Shown here: positions 15 through 44,194 of the stretch, piece by piece
How the letters are laid out: each line of letters starts with the position of its first letter
Numbering within the stretch: position 1 is the first letter of the stretch
Source of the DNA: a virus
Taxonomy: Duplodnaviria; Caudoviricetes
Length of the DNA: 64,000 nt
IMG/VR virus record: IMGVR_UViG_3300022555_000032
Coordinates: 1 to 64,000 of that record
Direction: 5' to 3' (one strand)
Program-made: the position numbers and the translations under genes
The notes under the pieces: model-generated
Told to the model about the DNA's origin: nothing
Seen by the model: the letters and a program-made list of their open reading frames with translations, nothing else
Databases searched by the model: none

Positions 15-3000
15 ATGCTTGAGAATACATTTGGAGAGAAAGGAAAACTCACTAACTGGATGGAAGCTAATCTTGGATTCATTCAAAAGAAGGTTGAAAA
101 CAGTGATGAAACAAAAGAGCATTCTCCATTACTTAATAATCCATTAGGAAGAATTGATGATAACCTTAAACAATCATATGAGGATTGGTATAAGAATAAA
201 TTGAAACCTAATGTAATTACTCCTATTCAGGCAAAGATCGATCGCAGTATAGCCGATAAGAAGATCAAACAGATGCGAAACATGGCAAATCGTGAAGAAT
301 TAGGTATTTCCTTCATAGAGATGCTTAATGTAGCCTTTGCTGGTAAACTTGATAAGGATGCTGAAAAAACCCTTGCTGATGCTGAAAAGGCATTGGATGA
401 TCTTTCAAAGATGGAGATCGATGGTAAACAATACGAAAGGCTTTATGATCTTCTTGATAAATATCTTAATCTTGATGATACTAAGCCAGAGACATTCCCT
501 ACTCGTAATGCAATAGAGAAAAGATTCATTGAGACACATCATATCATTGTCCAGGCATATACTAAACTCAGTGGCAAGTTAGGTCCGGTTGAACAAGAGT
601 TATTGGATAGCCTTGGAGAATATGTATATGATCTTAATTCCTTTGAGGTAAGATATGCTATTCGTAATGATAAGAGTGGTGATGTAGGTCTATTAACGGC
701 TGAGTCTTATGCTAAAGGTAAAGATGTATTTACCAAAATAAGATTCCAAGATAATGAAAAAAGAATCGCTTTAGGAAGACAAGATCCATTATCAGAGGAA
801 TATAGTTTCTTTCAGGAGTACTCCTTATATCTTGCTCATAGGATTAATGTAGCCGGAACTGAAGGATCTCCTACATGGGAACAGTTATACCAGATGTACG
901 ATGATGTTCTTAATAGTGAGTTTACTAAGGAAGGCAATCCTATCTATGGAGAAAACTCTAGACTAGGAACAGTAGAACAACAGGAAGCGCTTATTCATCT
1001 ATTAGGATGGTACTATAATCCAAGTCAGAAGTATCTTATTGATAATATTAAGAAAGATCAGTATGTAAAGAATAGAACATGGGATAATGCCATTCTTCTT
1101 CGTGCCTATTCTGGTACCGGAAAGTCAACATGGATGTTTCAACACTTCCTTAATGCTATCTTATTACAGAAAGGTATTACAGATGGAAAGTTCAAAGCAA
1201 CAGTAGTTCTTCCAAACTCAGGATTAACAAAGACCTTTAATGAGAATCTTAAGACTCTTAATGAGAAGTTTCCAAAACTAGAACTACAGATTATCTATTC
1301 AGACGATCTTATCAAAGGAAACATAATCGATGCTGATTCTGATTTCGTATGGCTTGAAGAAGCAAGTTTATACCGAAAGGAAGATGTAGCAAACATTCAT
1401 AAGAACATTGGAGATAAGAAAGTGATCATCGTAGGAGATGATGGTCAGACAACACCAGATGGATCTAATCCAACATGGTATACCTTCCAAGGAGTCTGTG
1501 AAAAGACACTGCCAATGACAGAGAGTTTCCGAGGGAACTCTTTAACTGTTTTTAACGATCTCTTCTCCTGGGGAAGACAACAGTTTTTTAATCCTATGAG
1601 TACTACTGGCATAGATTGGTCTACTATGTCTAAAGGTAAATGGAAGTTTGGTCAGGATGGAAGAGGCCCTATTGGACTTCGTGTTGTAAGGTCAAAGGAA
1701 GAGATACTGCAAGACTTTAAGGAATTCATGGGTATCATCAAGGGTCAGGACATGGAGTTTCCCTCAGAGAAGGAAAACGCTATCCTGATCGTTGCCACAA
1801 CTCTTGACAAGCAAATCCTTTTAAAAGAACATCCGGATCTTCAAAACTTCACTGATAATATCAAGACTATTCAGTATGATCTTGATTACATCATGGCTAA
1901 TGATAAATATCGTGAAGAGAACATATCTGGAATAGAAAAGGAATTCGTATTCATCTATTCTGATTGGTCAGCAAATAATAACATTGAAAAGAAAGACATT
2001 CAGGACTTAGCAACTGAAACCGGAACATCTCCTATTGATCCTTATGTCGCCAGTACTACGCTTGGTAAAACTCAGGCAAGACATATCTTAACTGCAACTA
2101 CAAGAGCAAAGAGGTTCTTAGTGATGATCAATCCTGAAGCTAATGAATCTACCCAGACAATTGATCATGCTTTACCAGATGATAAGATAGATGGTTTTGG
2201 ACCACATGCTCAAGAGACAACACCAGAACAGGTTCAGCTTATGCAAAGGATCTCTTCTGCAGCAATTGAAGGAAGACATAATTATACTAAGACTCCTGGT
2301 ACTGGTGGATCAGTCGTACAGAGTGATGATCTTATCTTCAATAGTGAGCTTACTACAAATGCAAAAAAAGAGCTGGCAACTAATGAGAATATCATAAAGT
2401 TCACCAGTCAACTATCTCCTACTTTTAATACTAATGATCAGCATGTTACTAACCTTACTCAATTAACATCATTACTATCTGAGAGTACTAAACCATCTGA
2501 AATAAGTACATCAAATGCGCTGGCTAATAATGTCCATAGGGAAGCAATCTTATGCGCCTTGGATCCTGATCGGTCAGAAGTAAAAGGAATAGCACTAATG
2601 GAACAATTCCTTGATGTTTATATGAAAGTTACATCTGTAACCTATAAGAAAGAAGATATTCCGGATATTGCTGAGACTGTATTCCATAGGTGGAAGATGC
2701 CTATTATCCAGTCTGATCTATCTAAGTTGATCAATAATCCTTTAGCAGTAATAGCTCATAATGTTTCCTTTAATGGATTCTCAGGAGAACCGCCTATCAT
2801 TGAAGTAGTAGGTTACGATAAGAAGACCAATAAGCCAATAGTAAACATTACTGATTTTACATTTGCCAATGTTACTGAAGCAAGTGAGTATTCGAAAAGC
2901 AAACTTGGAGTATATGCAGCCTTAGCAGAAGCCAATGGTGCTATTATCAATAGATTAAATATCATTCCTGTTCAAATCAATAGCAAGGGTAAGTTCATGG

Positions 3001-6000
3001 GAACCAATTATGGAGAAACCATTAACTTATCAATGGAAGAACGGTCTAAATATGTTCTCAATGGAAAGTCAATAGTAGGCTCTACAACACCTACAACGCA
3101 GACTTTTGCTTCAGTTGAACAAATGCTTCAATCTGCCAGGACAGTTGACTACGACTACGCAGGAATCAAAATAGGAGGATACTATTTCAATCGGACAACT
3201 GGCACCAGAGATCAGGTAACAGGACTTGAGATCAATGCCAAAGGTGATGTAGTAGTGAACATTGCTACTAAGAATGGAAGTAATAAAGCTTTCAAGTTGG
3301 ATACCTTTACTCAAACATTCTCTTTTGCTTCTATGAAGGACATTAATCCTTTATACAAAGAGTCTGCAGTATCATCCTTCAATGGAGACAAAGTAACCGG
3401 AACCTCTCATGCTTTTGCTATTGCTCCACTGATAGGATCATCATTACTTAATGGTAACTTCTATCAATCTAATATCATCAAACTTCGTCAGTTAGTAAGA
3501 GATAAGATAAGATCTCTGGGCCCACTGACCAAAAGACTATATGTTAATGGTAAGGATACTCTTGGATTAGTCTCTATTAATGACAATGGTAATGCTATTG
3601 AAGCTTATGATAACTGGAAGTATGTTGTTACCAATGAACTTGATGAAAGTCAGATAATAGGTCTTATTAGTAATAAATTATTTAATAAATTGTTACGAGA
3701 TAAGATTTATGTTAAACGAACAAAAACATACGAAAACCAACCAATAAGACCTGTATCATGGTCATCTATTGAGGAACTTAAGCAAAAAATTCAAAACGAT
3801 TTTAATAATAATCCAAATATTAATATTGCAAAATATGTTGAAGATTCAACTTCGTCGAATTATTCATTAGAAAAATTAAATGAATTTTATAATACTATCA
3901 ATAGTATTATTACTGATGAACAACTTTATCATATTTTTAAATCTTTTGGACTACACATTGTCTCCATGGACTATGAAAGCGAGTATGACTATAAGGATGC
4001 TGAAGGCAAGATCCCTTTAAAAATATTTGCAGATCCTAACTCAGAGATAAGTAAAGCTGCAGTTGACTATATTAATACTGGTAATGAGAAAGTCTTTGAT
4101 CTATTAAACAGAGATGGATTTACTCAAAGATACGTTCCGGCCGATCAGAAGAATCAGGATATTGCCAAGCAAGCTAATGTAGAACTTAACATCTACAGGT
4201 TGAAGATGATTAAGATGCTTCATGATGGTATTGAAGTAAAGACTACCATACAGGACACAAAGAGAAATCTTATCTATTCTGACGAACCAGTATCCTTTAA
4301 GGACTTTACTGAGAACATGGAGGCCAGGGGATTTATCTTTGAGATGAAGGGTAATAATATTGATATTGCTACCAAAAGAGTTAAAGTAGGAAAAAATAAA
4401 AAAACATTCTTTACTATTACTGCTAAGACTCCCGAAAAAACATACATTGAAATTAGATTCGATGGATCAAGATTAGGAACAGATCTTCATTCAGTTATCT
4501 CTACTTTATTATCCGGACTAGAACCTGATATTACTTTACAGGGAATGGGAAATGTCTTTGATGATCTTGATAAATTAGGAGATAAGATAGGTGAAATGAA
4601 AGGTATTGCTGATGAAGCTGCAAGGAAGATAACAGTAGGTCAGGCAGTACAGAACCTTCGTGATGCTTTTGATGAATTACCAGTAGTACAGTTCTTCCGG
4701 CATAATATGTCTGTCTTTAATGAACAGATGAAGACTAATGAAGCATTTAGAACTTATGCAAGTCAATTCTTTGATGTTGGACTACATTCAAGTAAAAAAA
4801 CTCAGGAGTTAAAGCCTAAAGGAGTTACGTATCAGTATCAGTTACAAATGATAAGTGATTTTCTTAAAGGTCTTACAGTTGATAAAAACGTATCTACTGA
4901 TGGAAGTATTCGTTTGAATAATGAAACAGAGGGATTCTACTTATACAATACTCCTTATACTGACTCAAAGGATACTGTTAATCCAAAGAACATTACTACC
5001 AATGTATCTGCAATAGGAGAACCAATGGTGTTTACTTTAAGAGATACTAACATACCAAAGAACAGTACTATCCGATTCATGCAGAGAGGTATCACTAATC
5101 CAAGTGATATCAAAATGACTAACATGGATCAGGTCACCAGAGAGGTCTATCGTATCATAGGACAGAGGCTAACCGATAATGATAGGATCTACTTAAAGTC
5201 TCCTGAAGAGATGAAGGCGATGTTTAATGATGATCTATACGGTGCTATGTTAGATGCTGCAATCTATCTTACAAAACTTGGAGATGGAACACTGGGTAAC
5301 TACTTTGCTGGCCGACATGAGGCATGGCACTTTGTACTTCATAACCTTTTGAATAACGAAACAGAGAACCGGATCCTTGAACTTACCAAAAAAGAAATGG
5401 TAAAGAAAGGACTAGCTAATTCTATTGAAGATATTACCGATTCTCAGGCACATGAATATGGTGCTAATATGTTCATGCGTGAAGACTATAAGAAGCATAC
5501 CTTACCAGGTCGGATATATCAAACCATTAAGAGATTCTTAACATGGCTTAAGATAACGGCACCGGATATCAACTGGTGGATGCGTAAGATTGACTCAGGT
5601 AAATATGCTGATGCTCCTATTCTTCAGAATGAACTTGAAGGAGTAATGTTTCCAATGAAGTCTAATTGGGAATATGGAAGTGATAAAGCACATGATAGAT
5701 TAAAGAAGACCTTTGGTAGTGATGATCGCTGGACCTCTATTGTCTCTGATCGTGTTATGCCTGAGTTAATGGATCATTCTCCTTACTCAAGACATTTCTT
5801 TGAAGCAAGGAACGCTGGATCAAAGAACATGATCAATCGTACCATAGATGCTTTCCTTGATAAGGAAAGTCAATTTGGACAAGAAAGAGTAACTATTAAT
5901 CAGACTATTAATGGAGAGAATGGTGAAGAGTCAGTAGTTCATAGATTTCAGTTACTAGTTAGTGAAATGACTACTGAAGATTATATGGTCGCTATGTCAA

Positions 6001-9000
6001 GCAATACCCAGGATAATCTCAGGGCCATGTATAAGTATGAGAACTATCATCTTTCTAATCCTAATATACTTCTTCCAATGATCCAGCATATCTTCGGATC
6101 GGTAAATATTCAAAAGATACTTGATGGTCAGCATACTCCTAAAGTAACAGGGATATCAGCATGGAGTAAAGATTCAGATATCATCATGCCGGAACAGTCC
6201 TTAAGCAAGATGTTTCTTCTTCTCTTCAACTCAATGCCTTTATGGGATTACAATACAAAGAAGATCAGTAGAGACGGAAGACGTAATCCTAAAAGGGTAG
6301 ATGCAAAGAATCTTGATACCTTAATGATGACTGTATCAACTCTTCTTCAGGAATCAGGCAAACCTATTAACGATAGATCCTTCTTACAAGCGTTTAAAGA
6401 CGTTATTAAGGCACACCCAGGGATTAAGTCAGGTCAGCAGATGGAACTTGTCAATACGGCTTATTCTTTCCTTATGGAGTGGGGAGAGAACCCAGAGAGT
6501 AAAGGTATAATTTATGATCCGGTAAAAGGAGAGTTTGTATCTGAAGAAGGTAGTGATCCTCCTATTGGAAGATGGGAAATGATCAATAATGCAGATATGT
6601 GGTCAGGTGCTCAAGGAACTCCTACAAGATCATTAGGAAGACAGTCTGCAGCACGACATGACTTTGAGATGGATTTTCAATCTATGATGGAGAACTATCG
6701 TGATGCTTTCTCAATACTTAAGACCTATTATCTTTCAAGATATTCCAGAAGGCAAGCTCAGTTTAATACCTACTTCGTAGACGGAACCTACTTTGACTTC
6801 AATACTAATACTAATAGTGATCTTAAGATATTCTTAAGCAACATCAGGGGTGTATTAAAAGACAATCTTTATACTACTGAAGGAACTCAGATAAATGAAA
6901 GCACAATCGATGCTATCATGCCAGGGGATAATCAACAGTATGACATTGACCTTGTAAAAAATCAGTTATTAAGGAAGGTAAAAGATGGAGATAAGTTTAA
7001 ATTCATTCCGGTACTTGGACATGACTTAGGAGTATCTACTGAACTAGTTAAATTTATGAAGTTCTTAGGACTTGATGGATTTAATGAAGAGATATTCTCA
7101 GCACTTAAGGAAGACTATCGTAGAGAAGTTCAGTCTAACCTGGTAACTGCATTTAAGTTATTGAAGTTAGGTGCTTTAATAACCAAGTTTCAGAATAATA
7201 ATCATTATGATGTCAATGAAGAAGGATCCGGTAAGAATTTCTTATCTGCTATGTCTTCCCTGGATACTCCCGATGCAAAAGAGATAGTATCATTGATCAA
7301 CTCTATTGAAAAGGACTATGCCAAGAAGGAGAATCTATTTGATCTTACAAACATATCCAATCTTAAAAAGGCTAATCTATACCAGGTAAGCCAAGGAATG
7401 AAACTTCCTGAGATCATGGATATGCATAAGTTCTTCGAAGGTATATCTACTCCTTACAACTACATTAAAGATGTCTTTGCTTCCAGAGTAGTAAGAGGTG
7501 TACTTGGAACTTATAAATCAGAGAATCCTTTAGGCAGTCTTATTGCTCAGATGTTTGCCGGAACTACTACTTCCAATAGCAGATTAGCAGTCGATATCCA
7601 AAAGAGAGCCGAAGATCATATTTCCAATGGACTGAAGATTGAGTCTCCATTCTTCTCGAAGGGAGAGAATGGTCAGCCAGTGTTCAATAATCCTATAATG
7701 AGCAAAAAGATCTCCATGGACTATCTCTATACCATGGATGGTGTTGAGGGATGGAAGAACGCTAATGAGTGGACTACGATGTCTGTAAACGATAAATTAC
7801 GTGGTCTATTCGAAGCATGCGTATGGGGCAATCAGATCATTACTGGAAGCAAGAGTAATGTTCCTTCCTTTCCAGCCTTCATTGATACTTTATCAGATAA
7901 GAAGTCAAAATACTTCACTGTTATCCGTTTCATGGACAAACAGTATGCTCAACAATCTTTATTGTTTACAGAAAGAGATCAGTATAAGCATAAGATCAGA
8001 GAGACTATTGTTAATGGTGCTGCAGTAGGGTCTATCCTTATTGACTTTGTGAAGTATTACGATGCTCTTAGGACTACTACTAAAGAACGGTTTGATAATG
8101 CCAAAGGAAACACCTTCAATCTTGTAAAGGATCGTGACTATGTAGTAAACAAAGACGGAAGCATAGGATTAGGCAATGCTATCATTCAGCCTAACAATCC
8201 TTATAATAACATTCACCTTGAACCTAATTCAAGCGACATTGATGTTTACAACTCAGCCAAGAAAGCACATCAGCAATTCTATGATAACTTAGTTGCTATT
8301 ATGAATGATGCTGCTTATCAGATGCCTACTCATATTGCCTCACAGTTTGCTACTTTCCCTGTAGAAGATATTTCATATTCAGAAGCTATAACAGATAAGA
8401 TCCAGGCTAAAGAATCAAAGAGTCTATCTGAATGGAGAAAGGAAGCTGAGAAACTAACTCATATCTCCCGTAATGAAGCCGGTGTAGTAGAAGATGGAGA
8501 GGATGATAATTCTAAAGCGATCTGGAAACATTATAAGACTATTCAGGACCATGCGGTTCAACAGATGGTTAAATCCGGATACAAGTATATTTCTTCAGAT
8601 GGTAATGTTATCTGGCACCCGATCATTGAAGCAGCTTACTGGGGCCACCATATCTTCAACGAATCAGTATCTCATTTGATCAGAGGAAACCAATTCGAAT
8701 ACCATGATGTAGTTGACTATATCAAAAGAGGAAGCGGTATCACCATTGAAGGACTGAATTATAATGTCAATCAGAATGAAGATAATATTACCGGAATAGC
8801 AAAGGAGAGTAGAATACTTATCACTAAGGATATTAAGTTTGATGATCCTTACTATGGAAAAACTAATAAGTTATTCGATGGTGCTATGTATCTTAATCCG
8901 GTAGATGCACTTGACTATGAGCATGCCATGGGTGGACTGATAGGTATCCTTGGAGACGGACCACAAAAGAATGTTCTCTTTCAGCATGATCCAGTAGCAT

Positions 9001-38023: not shown

Positions 38024-38220
38024 AAAGCATTATCTTTTAAGAATTTATTTTTACCATCAGTATCTACAAAAACAATCTTCTTAGCCTTACTAATGACATG
38101 ATCAGTTGATTCTTGTTTAAAACACCAGATATTTACCTGATCGAATGTATGTTTTTTAGCACAACTAAGAAGATCGTCTCTTGAGAATGACAGAAATCTA
38201 TTATCTGGATCCCAAATCAT
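38020..38220 (-). CDS. Hypothetical protein
   Basis: 66 aa. Confidence 0.5.
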   Translation of the reverse strand: MIWDPDNRFLSFSRDDLLSCAKKHTFDQVNIWCFKQESTDHVISKAKKIVFVDTDGKNKFLKDNAL

Positions 38221-38630
38221 TAGAAAACAAATTGATTAAGCTTATAAAGATCAATCTCATTGTCTTCAATCATAGTTGCAAGCATATTCCTTGTACCTTC
38301 ATCATCACCAAGATCCTTAATGATCTCCTTTTGCTTGATCTGGATAGTCTCATAGCCGACTATGATCTCCCTGAAGGCATTTTTAGGACCGTTAAGATCA
38401 CTTCTGAACACATCTAAGGACTTTGTATCAACCGTATAAGGATCGCCCATCCCAACGATTCTTTCAGCTATCTTATCAGCATTATCTTCTGCCTTTTGAT
38501 AAATTGATTCAAAGAACTTATGAAGCTCAAGGAAGTTAGATGCTTTGATATTCCAATGAGCATTTCTGGTATTTAAAAAAAGATTCCAATAGAGATAACT
38601 AAGATCTCTCAATTTGTCAACTGTTGTCAT
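38220..38630 (-). CDS. dps: Dps-family ferritin-like protein
   Basis: TRNAHWNIKA.NFLELHKFFE.IY......DKIAERI. Confidence 0.85.
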   Translation of the reverse strand: MTTVDKLRDLSYLYWNLFLNTRNAHWNIKASNFLELHKFFESIYQKAEDNADKIAERIVGMGDPYTVDTKSLDVFRSDLNGPKNAFREIIVGYETIQIKQKEIIKDLGDDEGTRNMLATMIEDNEIDLYKLNQFVF

Positions 38631-41791: not shown

Positions 41792-42286
41792 TCAGTTAGG
41801 ATTGTTTTGATCGTTGATCGGGATAATAATCGAATGATCGCAGACGTATGGACATGGTCCGGATCCTTGACTTGGTGTTGCATAGTATAATGTATTAATA
41901 TTGTTTCCATTACGATCTGTTGAACATACTGTAGAAATGTTAAGAGTACCATCTTTGGCTATAGTTATCCTACAGCCTACGGTTGATTCGCTTTGAAAAA
42001 GAATAGACATTGCTTCGTATTGCCAACGATTAACTAAGAATGATTTAAATACACCATTAATAGGTGTTGGCTTAGAATTGAGATATTGTTCCTGGAATTC
42101 TTTCGCAAGACCATACGAGATAAGCTGCATAAATGGATTGTTTTGAGGCTGTATAACAGCTTCTTTTAGGTTAGCCGAAGGATATACTGGTTTAGCTTCG
42201 TCCTTCTTCGTACAACTCATAATAGAGAATACAAGCATGTACATCAAAACGCAAAACGCAAAGATTCGTACCTGATGTTTTTTCAT
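41792..42286 (-). CDS. Lipoprotein
   Basis: Basic + hydrophobic N-terminus, lipobox IMSC followed by TKKDE; C-terminal GPCPYVC. Confidence 0.7.
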   Translation of the reverse strand: MKKHQVRIFAFCVLMYMLVFSIMSCTKKDEAKPVYPSANLKEAVIQPQNNPFMQLISYGLAKEFQEQYLNSKPTPINGVFKSFLVNRWQYEAMSILFQSESTVGCRITIAKDGTLNISTVCSTDRNGNNINTLYYATPSQGSGPCPYVCDHSIIIPINDQNNPN

Positions 42287-42317
42287 TGTAACTGTTTTAG
42301 TTAATGGTTAATGATTT

Positions 42318-42411
42318 GAAGAAAAGAAAAGAAAGGATGGATAGTAATTGAGGAAATATAGCTACACATTTGTCAACTGATGAGGCACCCATACCTTTCT
42401 TTCTATGAATG
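42318..42411 (-). ncRNA. Candidate small RNA/leader attenuator
   Basis: Multi-segment hairpin 42328-42402 with minus-strand G-U pairs, U-rich tail, directly after a TATATTTG -7 box. Confidence 0.55.
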
Positions 42412-42417
42412 GAACAA

Positions 42418-42425
42418 CAAATATA
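42418..42425 (-). promoter_or_regulatory. Bacteroidota sigma-ABfr type -7 element (TAnnTTTG)
   Basis: TATATTTG on minus strand in intergenic DNA; no clear -33 at canonical spacing. Confidence 0.5.
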
Positions 42426-42555
42426 TAAAATAAATTATGAAAAATCAGATAAGCAAAAGAAATGAATATGCTAAACGGTATTGATTAAATTTTCCCCTCT
42501 CTTTTCAACACCTATGCTTACACCAGCTTCCTTTCATTTCTTCGCTCAAGACTAA

Positions 42556-42670
42556 GACATATGCTAACTGAGGTAACTAGGAGTTATCACTACCCCATGG
42601 ATCCAGATTTCGATCCCCATTGTTGCCTGTTTCACTTGACTCACCCCTTCCCGAGAGGATAACATATGCC
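42556..42670 (-). ncRNA. Candidate multibranch structured RNA
   Basis: Closing pairs GGCATATG/CATATGTC and GTTATC/GATAAC, inner GGATC/GATCC; GC-rich in non-coding DNA. Confidence 0.35.
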
Positions 42671-42851
42671 TTAAATATCATCTTCTCTTGAATCTATTTC
42701 TTTCTCTTTGTTCATAGTCAGCACGAACTTCTGCCTCCCTACTTTTATCAGTAATGAAGATGATTGTCTTACCACCATTCAACACTATCGGATATTTGTC
42801 TTTTACAGATCCACAAATTACTCAATAGAATCAAACCATCCGGCAATATAT

Positions 42852-42897
42852 ATTGTGGAATCTATGTCAAAGATACAATCTGAAAGCAATTCACAAC
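42852..42897 (-). CRISPR. Solitary type II-C (Bacteroidota) CRISPR repeat unit, no cas genes
   Basis: GTTGTGAATTGCTTTCAGATTGTATCTTTGACATAGATTCCACAAT, 46 nt, GTTGTG...CACAAT termini; 29 of first 32 aligned columns match the B. fragilis II-C repeat as recalled. Confidence 0.8.
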
Positions 42898-43035
42898 TAA
42901 TCCCTTGTTGTTGATCAAGAATATCAACCTTAGCTCTCCTTTTACGTTCCATTTCTTTAAACTCTTTTCTAGTTGTAATTCTAGAAGGAGTAACCGCATA
43001 CCTACGTTTCATAAAGATTTAATTAGATTGTTAAA

Positions 43036-43067
43036 CAAATGTATGAATTATGATAGAATGTTAGCAA
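43036..43067 (-). promoter_or_regulatory. Host-type promoter upstream of the CRISPR repeat
   Basis: TTG-N21-TACATTTG on minus strand. Confidence 0.55.
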
Positions 43068-43143
43068 TTATTACCAGTGCGCCCATTGCTAAGGCACCAA
43101 GAATGATCTTGATAAGTATTACTGGAACTTCGACTAGTTTCAT
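43048..43143 (-). CDS. 31-aa single-pass membrane peptide (not in ORF track)
   Basis: MKLVEVPVILIKIILGALAMGALVIIANILS; starts 5 nt after the lipoprotein stop. Confidence 0.55.
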   Translation of the reverse strand: MKLVEVPVILIKIILGALAMGALVIIANILS

Positions 43144-43147
43144 ATAG

Positions 43148-43534
43148 CTAATTTTTATAGACTATTGTTAGTTTCAATTGAATGATTGTACCTGGAGATG
43201 CATTAAGTCTTCCTATCAGACTATTATCATCATTCATTAGATACTTAATATCTAAATTTTGATTAAAATATCCTTTAGATAGGACTATTGAATCAAGATC
43301 ATTTGATGATTTAGTCTTTAAAAGTAGTAGAACCGGACTCTTATCTGTATATACTGTACCATTCATACCTAAAACACTAATAGGATTACTCATTAATGTT
43401 TTAAAGGTAGGAATATTAAAATCACCAACAGGTATTGAGATCTGAATGGTTTGAAAGGGAAGGATATCTGATTGTTCCTGTTTAGAACAAGAGATCAATG
43501 CCAAAATGATAATAAGAAACAAAGTTGTTTTCAT
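43148..43534 (-). CDS. Lipoprotein
   Basis: MKTTLFLIIILALISC-SKQEQ lipobox. Confidence 0.75.
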   Translation of the reverse strand: MKTTLFLIIILALISCSKQEQSDILPFQTIQISIPVGDFNIPTFKTLMSNPISVLGMNGTVYTDKSPVLLLLKTKSSNDLDSIVLSKGYFNQNLDIKYLMNDDNSLIGRLNASPGTIIQLKLTIVYKN

Positions 43535-43577
43535 CGTCTTGATATTAGGTTAATAAATGAATGAATAAGGCTAAAAG

Positions 43578-43653
43578 AAGCCCCTGGATACACGATCGGC
43601 GCAAGATGACCCTATGACATATCATCAACAGCAACTACGTTCACCAGAGGCTT
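43578..43653 (-). ncRNA. Long-stem intergenic RNA element
   Basis: AAGCCTCTGG/CCAGGGGCTT 10-bp closing stem (G-U on minus only), inner GATGAT/GTCATC, followed by CTTTT. Confidence 0.5.
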
Positions 43654-43906
43654 AATGTTATTCTTCAAAGAGGGAGAATCGGACTCCCTTTCAGATCTTT
43701 CTTCTTCGATTAATCTGTGTACTCCCACTGTACGACCTTGCCAGCAATAAGTAAAGATCTCTTGCAGGACTTATATCCTCTTATAAGCCGAATGATATTG
43801 ATCAAGTGATACAATACTATAGATTGTACTCTTTGATGCGAACCAGCCACTCATAAGCTATTAAATAGACAAGAGATCTCTTAGGTGATACTTACTTAAG
43901 TAATAA

Positions 43907-44194
43907 TCACTCAAGCAATTCTTTTTGATTAGAAAACAGATAAACTTTTTTATCTGAAGAAATTTCATGAGAAACACAGGCACGTATACCCTGATATTTA
44001 AGTGAATTTAGTCTATTGGGTTCATTAGTTTCAGTAGGACATACTCCGTATACTTGAAATATACCAGCATCAACCTGAGCAATAAATTGTTTCTGTCCGT
44101 CTGTATCTATTAATCCAATACATGCGTGATCATCAATCTTATCCAATGGTATGACTGGTTCCTGTTGATACTTAATAATTCTTTGCATAATCAA
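43907..44194 (-). CDS. Hypothetical protein
   Basis: 95 aa, with AAGGAG-containing leader. Confidence 0.6.
   Translation of the reverse strand: MIMQRIIKYQQEPVIPLDKIDDHACIGLIDTDGQKQFIAQVDAGIFQVYGVCPTETNEPNRLNSLKYQGIRACVSHEISSDKKVYLFSNQKELLE

Follow-up and report, generated by a model that had tools for sequence, protein, structure and literature searches.

A freshwater phage carries on the minus strand of its genome a single, solitary type II-C CRISPR repeat of 46 nt together with the adjoining 60 nt of the CRISPR leader of its Bacteroidales host. The reading of this element that we hold to be the most likely, and that we put forward tentatively, is that it is a Racr-like RNA decoy of the solitary-repeat class, i.e. 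an "extraneous crRNA" that would occupy the tracrRNA and Cas9 of the host. The phage record comprises 85,427 bp with direct terminal repeats, is rated 100% complete and encodes a terminase, a DnaB-like helicase and a frame of 5,737 aa. Positions given below refer to the window, i.e. the whole stretch of 64,000 nt of this record that was analysed, and the features are collected in the table.

All the letters quoted in an earlier, sequence-only reading of this DNA are present, and the 46-nt repeat running from 42897 to 42852 on the minus strand is real. It occurs once in the window, with none expected in shuffles, and once in the whole record, and the sole nearby similarity to it is a 9-mer that belongs to the host leader; the complete genome has one full-length repeat, as expected for a solitary repeat unit (SRU). 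The first 31 nt of the repeat match exactly 55 stretches in genomes of Bacteroidales, Rikenellaceae, Prolixibacteraceae and relatives, mostly in arrays whose period is 76 nt. When metagenomes were scanned with the 3' half of the repeat, which is specific to the phage, three arrays (L062, L065 and L067) of 21-43 copies each were found, in which the repeat is identical to that of the phage at 45 of 46 positions, the sole difference being the last base, which is T in the phage and C in the hosts. A final T, as we observed post hoc, ends three phage solitary repeats (window 42852, L002 2351 and L084), and in host repeats the last base is almost invariably C. The Rfam matches to the element, all to CRISPR-DR families, were below threshold (CRISPR-DR50, 26 bits versus a threshold of 47). 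Given the near-identical host unit, the regular spacers and the adjoining cas9-cas1-cas2 genes, with no csn2 or cas4 seen, the 46-nt minus-strand unit is a genuine type II-C CRISPR repeat.

The homology to the host extends beyond the repeat. Positions 42792-42897 align with positions 6704-6809 of L067 at 96.2% identity over 106 nt without gaps (E 8e-45). On one side this homology ends exactly at 42897, the spacer-side edge of the repeat, and on the other side it stops at the host A-run, before the distal inverted motif and the terminator. By this alignment, the copied piece consists of the last, spacer-acquiring repeat of an array and of the cas2-adjoining leader, of which it comprises the first 60 nt. 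We identify the flank as the leader because it adjoins cas2, because the opposite array ends carry degenerate oldest repeats and because of the published polarity of transcription and acquisition: in II-C arrays each repeat contains a promoter, transcription proceeds toward the leader and the last repeat is the site of spacer acquisition (PMC8092290, PMC12080349, PMC13187072). The phage layout of native sequence, last repeat and leader corresponds to that of newest spacer, last repeat and leader in a II-C array.

The sequence-only reading had taken 34 nt (42818-42851) for a spacer and the TTTGVGGAT-type 9-mer TTTGTGGAT (42809-42817) for a degenerate half-repeat. Both are present; between the 9-mer and the host anti-repeat 8 pairs are possible (-7.6 kcal/mol), and the pairing of a 28-nt piece containing it ranks among the best 1.7% of random phage windows. 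Together, however, they make up the first 43 nt of the 60-nt leader copy and, because of the 106-nt alignment with L067, are part of the host array flank rather than a spacer and a degenerate repeat. A lack of conservation of the half-repeat was to have counted against the earlier reading; it is conserved, but only as host leader.

The host leaders also explain the pairing of the half-repeat. They contain a motif that is the reverse complement of the variable 3' end of their own repeat at a fixed offset of ~57 nt, just before the terminator, and in the closest hosts a second copy of this motif at ~34 nt is the 9-mer. These GTGG-type motifs follow the reverse complement of the 3' end of their own repeat and not the constant 5' end, with 8.5/12 matches to the own repeat versus 5.9/12 to the repeats of other hosts. 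Because the ends of the repeat are palindromic, an inverted copy of the 3' end resembles the 5' end, and the pairing with the anti-repeat is accounted for in this way. RNAalifold predicted no consensus structure for 34 host leaders, and the pairing was then tested with the structure named: 77.9% of cells pair, a share that falls to 64.6% in shuffles and to 33-40% on sliding the partner, and there are 46 double-change cells compared to 15.5 in shuffles, a value reached by 0/500 shuffles. Host leader RNA folds at -44.1 kcal/mol (z -5.8); the predicted phage hairpin has a minimum free energy of -18.6 kcal/mol with a z of -1.6 that is not significant alone. A previous study identified no leader-repeat hairpins in II-C systems (PMC12080349).

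In L067, cas9, cas1 and cas2 are followed by the array, and the locus carries Cas9-BH, HNH, RuvC_III, Cas1 and Cas2. Its cas9 (684-5340) consists of two overlapping frames of 649 and 910 aa with bridge-helix, HNH and RuvC_III domains; the split is due either to a frameshift, to a sequencing error or to decay of the gene. A candidate tracrRNA, with a TATATTTG box, an anti-repeat, a hairpin and a terminator, is predicted upstream of cas9 on the opposite strand (~650 to 530, minus strand). Repeat positions 2-23 of the phage and the L067 anti-repeat are predicted to form a duplex of 22 bp with one bulge (-27.4 kcal/mol), and the tracr-pairing part of the phage repeat is wholly intact. At the cas2-distal ends of host arrays the oldest repeat either retains only its 3' part, which bears the promoter, or is interrupted by the insertion of a GC-rich hairpin. 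Repeats truncated or interrupted in this manner are known from the oldest end of II-C arrays (PMC12080349), and those found here agree with the published ways in which II-C systems suppress extraneous crRNA. We also observed in a Rikenellaceae MAG (L023 3657-3800) a single full repeat followed within ~25 nt by a stretch resembling a tracrRNA tail, with a nexus-like hairpin and a terminator; this may be an unusual layout of array and tracrRNA or a natural single-RNA form.

Table. Positions of the solitary repeat, the captured leader and associated features (window coordinates unless a host locus is named)
Feature	Position	Strand	Remark
Solitary type II-C CRISPR repeat (46 nt)	42852..42897	-	Predicted to pair, at positions 2-23, with the host anti-repeat
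Copy of 60 nt of host CRISPR leader (cas2-proximal array flank)	42792..42851	-	Holds the 34 nt and TTTGTGGAT
Native phage 30 nt in newest-spacer position, guide part of any crRNA-like product	42898..42927	-	Outside the host homology
64-aa open frame through repeat and leader	42818..43012	-	CRISPR-locus DNA makes up its last 26 codons
Repeat-embedded promoter-like motif TTG-N18-TATCTTTG	42868..42896	-	Motif scan
Bacteroidota-type promoter-like site TTG-N21-TACATTTG	43036..43067	-	~140 nt upstream of the repeat; consensus match only
Predicted hairpin	42805..42865	-	Formed by the repeat 3' end and the leader motif around TTTGTGGATCTGT, with an inner stem between them
Leader motif covarying with the repeat 3' end	Host loci L005-L067, ~57-70 nt past the last repeat, e.g. 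L067 6690-6779	-	After the A-run, before the terminator
cas2-distal ends with a truncated or hairpin-split oldest repeat	L005, L016, L017, L042, L047, L048; L022, L024, L034, L041, L058, L063		

The searches run on the phage showed no cas genes, with no match to Cas1 and with a Cas9 family search that had no working control. Likewise, the phage contains no tracr-like stretch beyond chance 10-14-mers, no tyrosine or serine recombinase or integrase was found in it, and comparison with the host loci collected here revealed no other host-like DNA. A likeness of the upstream phage sequence to a tracr nexus, seen by eye, was rejected for want of a seed match. No GenBank phage matched positions 42000-44000. 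Elsewhere in the genome we observed a ferritin/Dps-like DNA-binding protein (38220-38630, minus strand; Pfam Ferritin 6.8e-12; phrog_3636).

The repeat lies on the coding strand of a leftward gene block, and the next sizeable gene starts ~560 nt downstream of the element. Intergenic position is a feature sought by SRUFinder; the element is located inside a 64-aa frame that is accepted by gene callers and lacks homologues: among 5.8 billion proteins only the copies of this phage itself were recovered, and neither Pfam nor PHROG gave a match. This frame is a chimera and improbable as a conserved gene. The minus strand of the 85-kb genome has only five Bacteroidota-type sites, among them the one upstream of the repeat. 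A scan for sigma-70 promoters and terminators, uninformative in itself, detected no terminator-like site in 42200-43700. None of 10 neighbouring proteins belongs to an informative family in Pfam or PHROG, two libraries that hold few Acr families, and no known acr or aca gene neighbours the element as would be expected in a Racr neighbourhood. The flanking proteins have no relatives in viral contigs and only self-matches in the large protein set.

The same phage was recovered on 11 contigs and in runs of two studies (2017 and 2020). An independent ENA assembly is identical across both insert junctions, and in contigs of four runs of the second study (2020, lake water and sediment) each junction is covered without a difference; one of these four runs also holds a contig piece with host-type leader sequence. 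Neither an insert-free allele, nor a joint skipping the insert, nor an allele with a second repeat was found in the 11 contigs or the four runs. Two deviating sequences were observed. Logan contig L068 (870-1010) joins the phage at the repeat to the repeat end and leader of a different host, and was treated as an assembly chimera formed via the shared 33 nt instead of as a recombinant. One ENA contig (protein P0001) has a host-like base at window 42822, with which the 64-aa frame ends in ...SIG. Both could have arisen in assembly, as chimeras via the shared repeat, or be true recombinants.

Among 2.9 million viral contigs, scans identified further single full repeats, of the same II-C family or of related ones, in L002, L003, L085/L086 and L087, and perhaps in L084. 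The clear viral cases are intergenic and co-oriented with genes in 6/6 instances, counting the window, in which the repeat lies inside the predicted 64-aa frame. The L002 repeat takes up exactly the space between two genes, with its last bases, including the final T, providing the ATG of the next gene. L089 (IMGVR_UViG_3300010338_000550) has an SRU at 7683 of the oriented locus in which repeat positions 1-20 are followed directly by a hairpin and a T-run, a design that fits an RNA pairing with tracrRNA and, to judge by its sequence, neither a promoter nor a scar. This element, as a side observation, resembles a ready-made crRNA 3' handle. Leader sequence is carried by none of the other viral solitary repeats, and no other viral contig has the 25-mer from upstream of the element or the 24-mer from its leader. 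In L088 and L091-L093 the match was partial, lay within or next to coding sequence and was dismissed as due to chance. A 217-kb viral contig (L090 12474-13037) was seen to hold a true array of at least eight related II-C-like repeats with a period of 78; this is either an array-bearing large phage or a host piece that was mis-binned.

Combining these data, we suggest the following model for the element as a decoy. The unit would be transcribed in sense with the leftward gene block, starting at the 43067-43036 site or by read-through. The repeat RNA would pair with the host tracrRNA via repeat positions 2-23, and the duplex would enter Cas9 as an extraneous crRNA with the phage's own upstream sequence as guide. 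This product would compete with real crRNAs for tracrRNA and Cas9, leading to weaker immunity. The guide would be harmless to the phage because the matching phage DNA adjoins the repeat and not a PAM. We infer transcription, loading into Cas9 and the effect on immunity from what the DNA itself shows, namely what it is and where it comes from, that it occurs once, on which strand it lies and how it can pair. The engagement of Cas9 is plausible because a phage with neither a tracr-like gene nor a Cas1 match carries an intact tracr-pairing element; in this respect the sequence-only reading, which had the phage engage the Cas9 of its host, holds up, whereas the phage-programmed guide that it proposed does not.

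Several lines of evidence argue for the decoy: the repeat is present in a single copy in a complete phage and is nearly identical to one found beside cas9-cas1-cas2 and a tracrRNA candidate; it occupies the coding strand, with a rare Bacteroidota-type promoter-like site upstream; the locus is identical in an independent assembly, and phage and host-type leader occur in one run; and related viral repeats are co-oriented with genes, one of them (L089) being trimmed to the tracr-pairing part plus a terminator. Other observations argue against it. Inside a predicted frame and with no terminator-like site, the element is untidy as a small-RNA gene, and it has no acr or aca neighbour. One copy must compete against at least 40 crRNAs, each with its own promoter, and the cas9 of L067 is split. 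Moreover, a plain solitary repeat is not known from experiments to inhibit any Cas9 system.

Viral solitary repeats of all CRISPR types but VI were catalogued in 2023, and several act as RNA anti-CRISPRs against types I and V-A (Camara-Wilpert et al. 2023, PMC10651486). Similarly to these Racr and solitary repeat units, the phage element is a single subtype-matched repeat in sense orientation in a genome with no cas genes seen, and it would compete for Cas components. It differs from them in that the tested Racr are bound directly by the type I and V-A proteins on which they act, whereas here the route would be pairing with tracrRNA, and in that it has 60 nt of host leader, lies in a predicted frame and has no known acr neighbour (PMC10651486). 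RNA inhibitors of Cas9 reported in 2026 preprints are sgRNA-like or scaRNA-like (10.64898/2026.06.01.729453). With these viral scaRNAs and sgRNAs (Feussner et al. 2026, 10.64898/2026.06.01.729453) the element has in common that it is a phage copy of a host type II RNA element and that sequestration is the proposed idea; unlike it, they lie near Acr/Aca genes and have the guide, directed at the cas9 promoter, of a host scaRNA or tracr-L, and here we saw no such target, no such neighbour and no fused tracr. Extraneous crRNAs have been described as a burden on defence (PMC12080349), and one reduced Cas13b defence (PMC13187072). As in these ecrRNAs, the guide of the phage product would come from outside an array and the product would engage the machinery without giving immunity (PMC12080349, PMC13187072); ecrRNAs, however, are host by-products that hosts suppress, whereas here the phage would make one on purpose. 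Finally, like Cracr, the product would be a phage RNA mimicking CRISPR RNA and occupying Cas proteins, but Cracr, known for types V-A and I, have at least nine PAM-proximal matches to a host regulatory guide, which this element lacks (Liu et al. preprint, 10.1101/2024.10.29.618823). In the literature examined we found no description of a plain repeat that acts via tracrRNA or of a repeat captured with its own leader.

By whichever route it is used, the insert probably originated, as its junctions suggest, when the phage recombined with a host array at a spacer that had just been acquired, an origin that accounts for both the exact junction and the co-captured leader. This origin alone explains these two features with no function needed, and it is the core of the strongest alternative, in which the element is a functionless scar or one-off escape: the host took a spacer from 42898-42927, and the phage recombined with it, gaining repeat and leader and losing the PAM of the protospacer. 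The order of phage 30 nt, repeat and leader exactly mirrors newest spacer, last repeat and leader (PMC8092290, PMC12080349), homology breaks off precisely at the repeat edge, the 96% identity suggests a recent event, the chimeric frame has no homologues and the leader was captured in this phage only. Nevertheless, we consider a scar unlikely, if well worth weighing. The 30 nt are unlike all 723 unique host spacers, and no insert-free allele was found among the 11 contigs, the four runs and the viral contigs. Point mutation is a far easier route of escape from CRISPR than recombination. In addition, a scar predicts neither the sense orientation of the related phage repeats nor the trimming and terminator of L089.

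Alternatively, the element could be a programmed guide, consisting either of the 34 nt with the 9-nt half-repeat or of the upstream 30 nt with the intact repeat, that aims host Cas9 at a host promoter or at a competing phage. Viral scaRNAs and crRNA-like regulators exist elsewhere (10.64898/2026.06.01.729453; 10.1101/2024.10.29.618823), and the upstream 30 nt and the intact repeat do have the form of a crRNA, as proposed in the sequence-only reading. We nevertheless regard this possibility as improbable. The 34 nt are host leader, the half-repeat offers only 8 bp, and the upstream sequence is found in no related phage. For neither candidate guide did the phage or the host tracr/cas9/cas1/cas2 locus yield a 3'-anchored match of at least 10 nt, the longest being 8-9 nt; in L067 the longest is 8 nt and lies inside the cas9 coding sequence. 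Searched for in 401 Bacteroidales genomes, the final 20 nt of either candidate guide gave only matches with 1-2 mismatches, the number of which was of the same order as in a reversed-pattern control, and the only match examined, common to the two closest genomes, has a seed mismatch and lies inside a gene and not in a promoter. These results weaken the proposal that the guide is directed at host cas or defence promoters. None of the 723 unique host spacers resembles 42898-42927 or the 34 nt; against the phage these spacers gave only chance-level matches (best 16-nt exact or 21/23), as they did against the 90-kb L003 genome and L002, so that no host-targeting link and no PAM could be derived. 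As for the known classes, L067 has in its cas9 promoter region no exact match, with a PAM, to at least 10 nt of the guide 3' end, such as marks viral scaRNAs, and the phage repeat is not fused to a tracr part, as in viral sgRNAs.

A special form of the guide reading, far-fetched in our estimate, is a homing-drive-like allele: with the phage's own upstream 30 nt as guide, host Cas9 would cut insert-free sibling or ancestral phages, and repair from a co-infecting carrier would copy the insert into them. Carriers would be immune to this cutting because the insert separates the protospacer from its former PAM. An origin of the insert by recombination with a new spacer would lead straight to such an allele.

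It is also rather improbable that the repeat was co-opted as a portable promoter, i.e. a compact host promoter for downstream phage genes. TTG-N18-TATCTTTG lies within the repeat as the sequence-only reading had noted, and belongs to the host repeat family without being an invention of the phage; type II-C repeats have been reported to carry their own promoters that fire toward the leader (PMC8092290, PMC12080349). The L002 repeat, which fills an intergenic gap and supplies the next ATG, would fit this function. L089, however, keeps the tracr-pairing half and not the promoter half, the next sizeable gene in the window is distant, and host-type promoter motifs are not enriched in the phage (8 found versus 9.4 in shuffles).

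A role at the DNA level, in which the leader-repeat unit would serve host Cas1-Cas2 as the seed of a mini-array or as a sink diverting new spacers from the host array, appears doubtful to a slightly greater degree. The piece is the exact acquisition site, i.e. the last repeat and 60 nt of leader (PMC12080349), and replicating phage DNA would supply many copies of it; no variant with a second repeat was found in the 11 contigs or four runs, the base at the leader-repeat junction is altered and the distal covarying motif of the leader is absent. Prophage integration into CRISPR repeats and viral mini-arrays are other sources of repeat-like viral DNA. Unlike these, this phage has no integrase and no second repeat: a mini-CRISPR array has at least two repeats flanking a spacer and here there is only one. 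Site-specific integration into arrays was set aside, as no tyrosine or serine recombinase was found.

The phage and its putative host provide a matched set for a direct test of the decoy, in that a complete phage and a host-type locus with cas9, tracrRNA candidate, leader and array co-occur in the same lake samples. [quoted passage not shown] Alongside a small number of further repeats in Bacteroidota phages, it suggests a class of Cas9-directed RNA decoys in a phylum in which anti-CRISPRs are little known.
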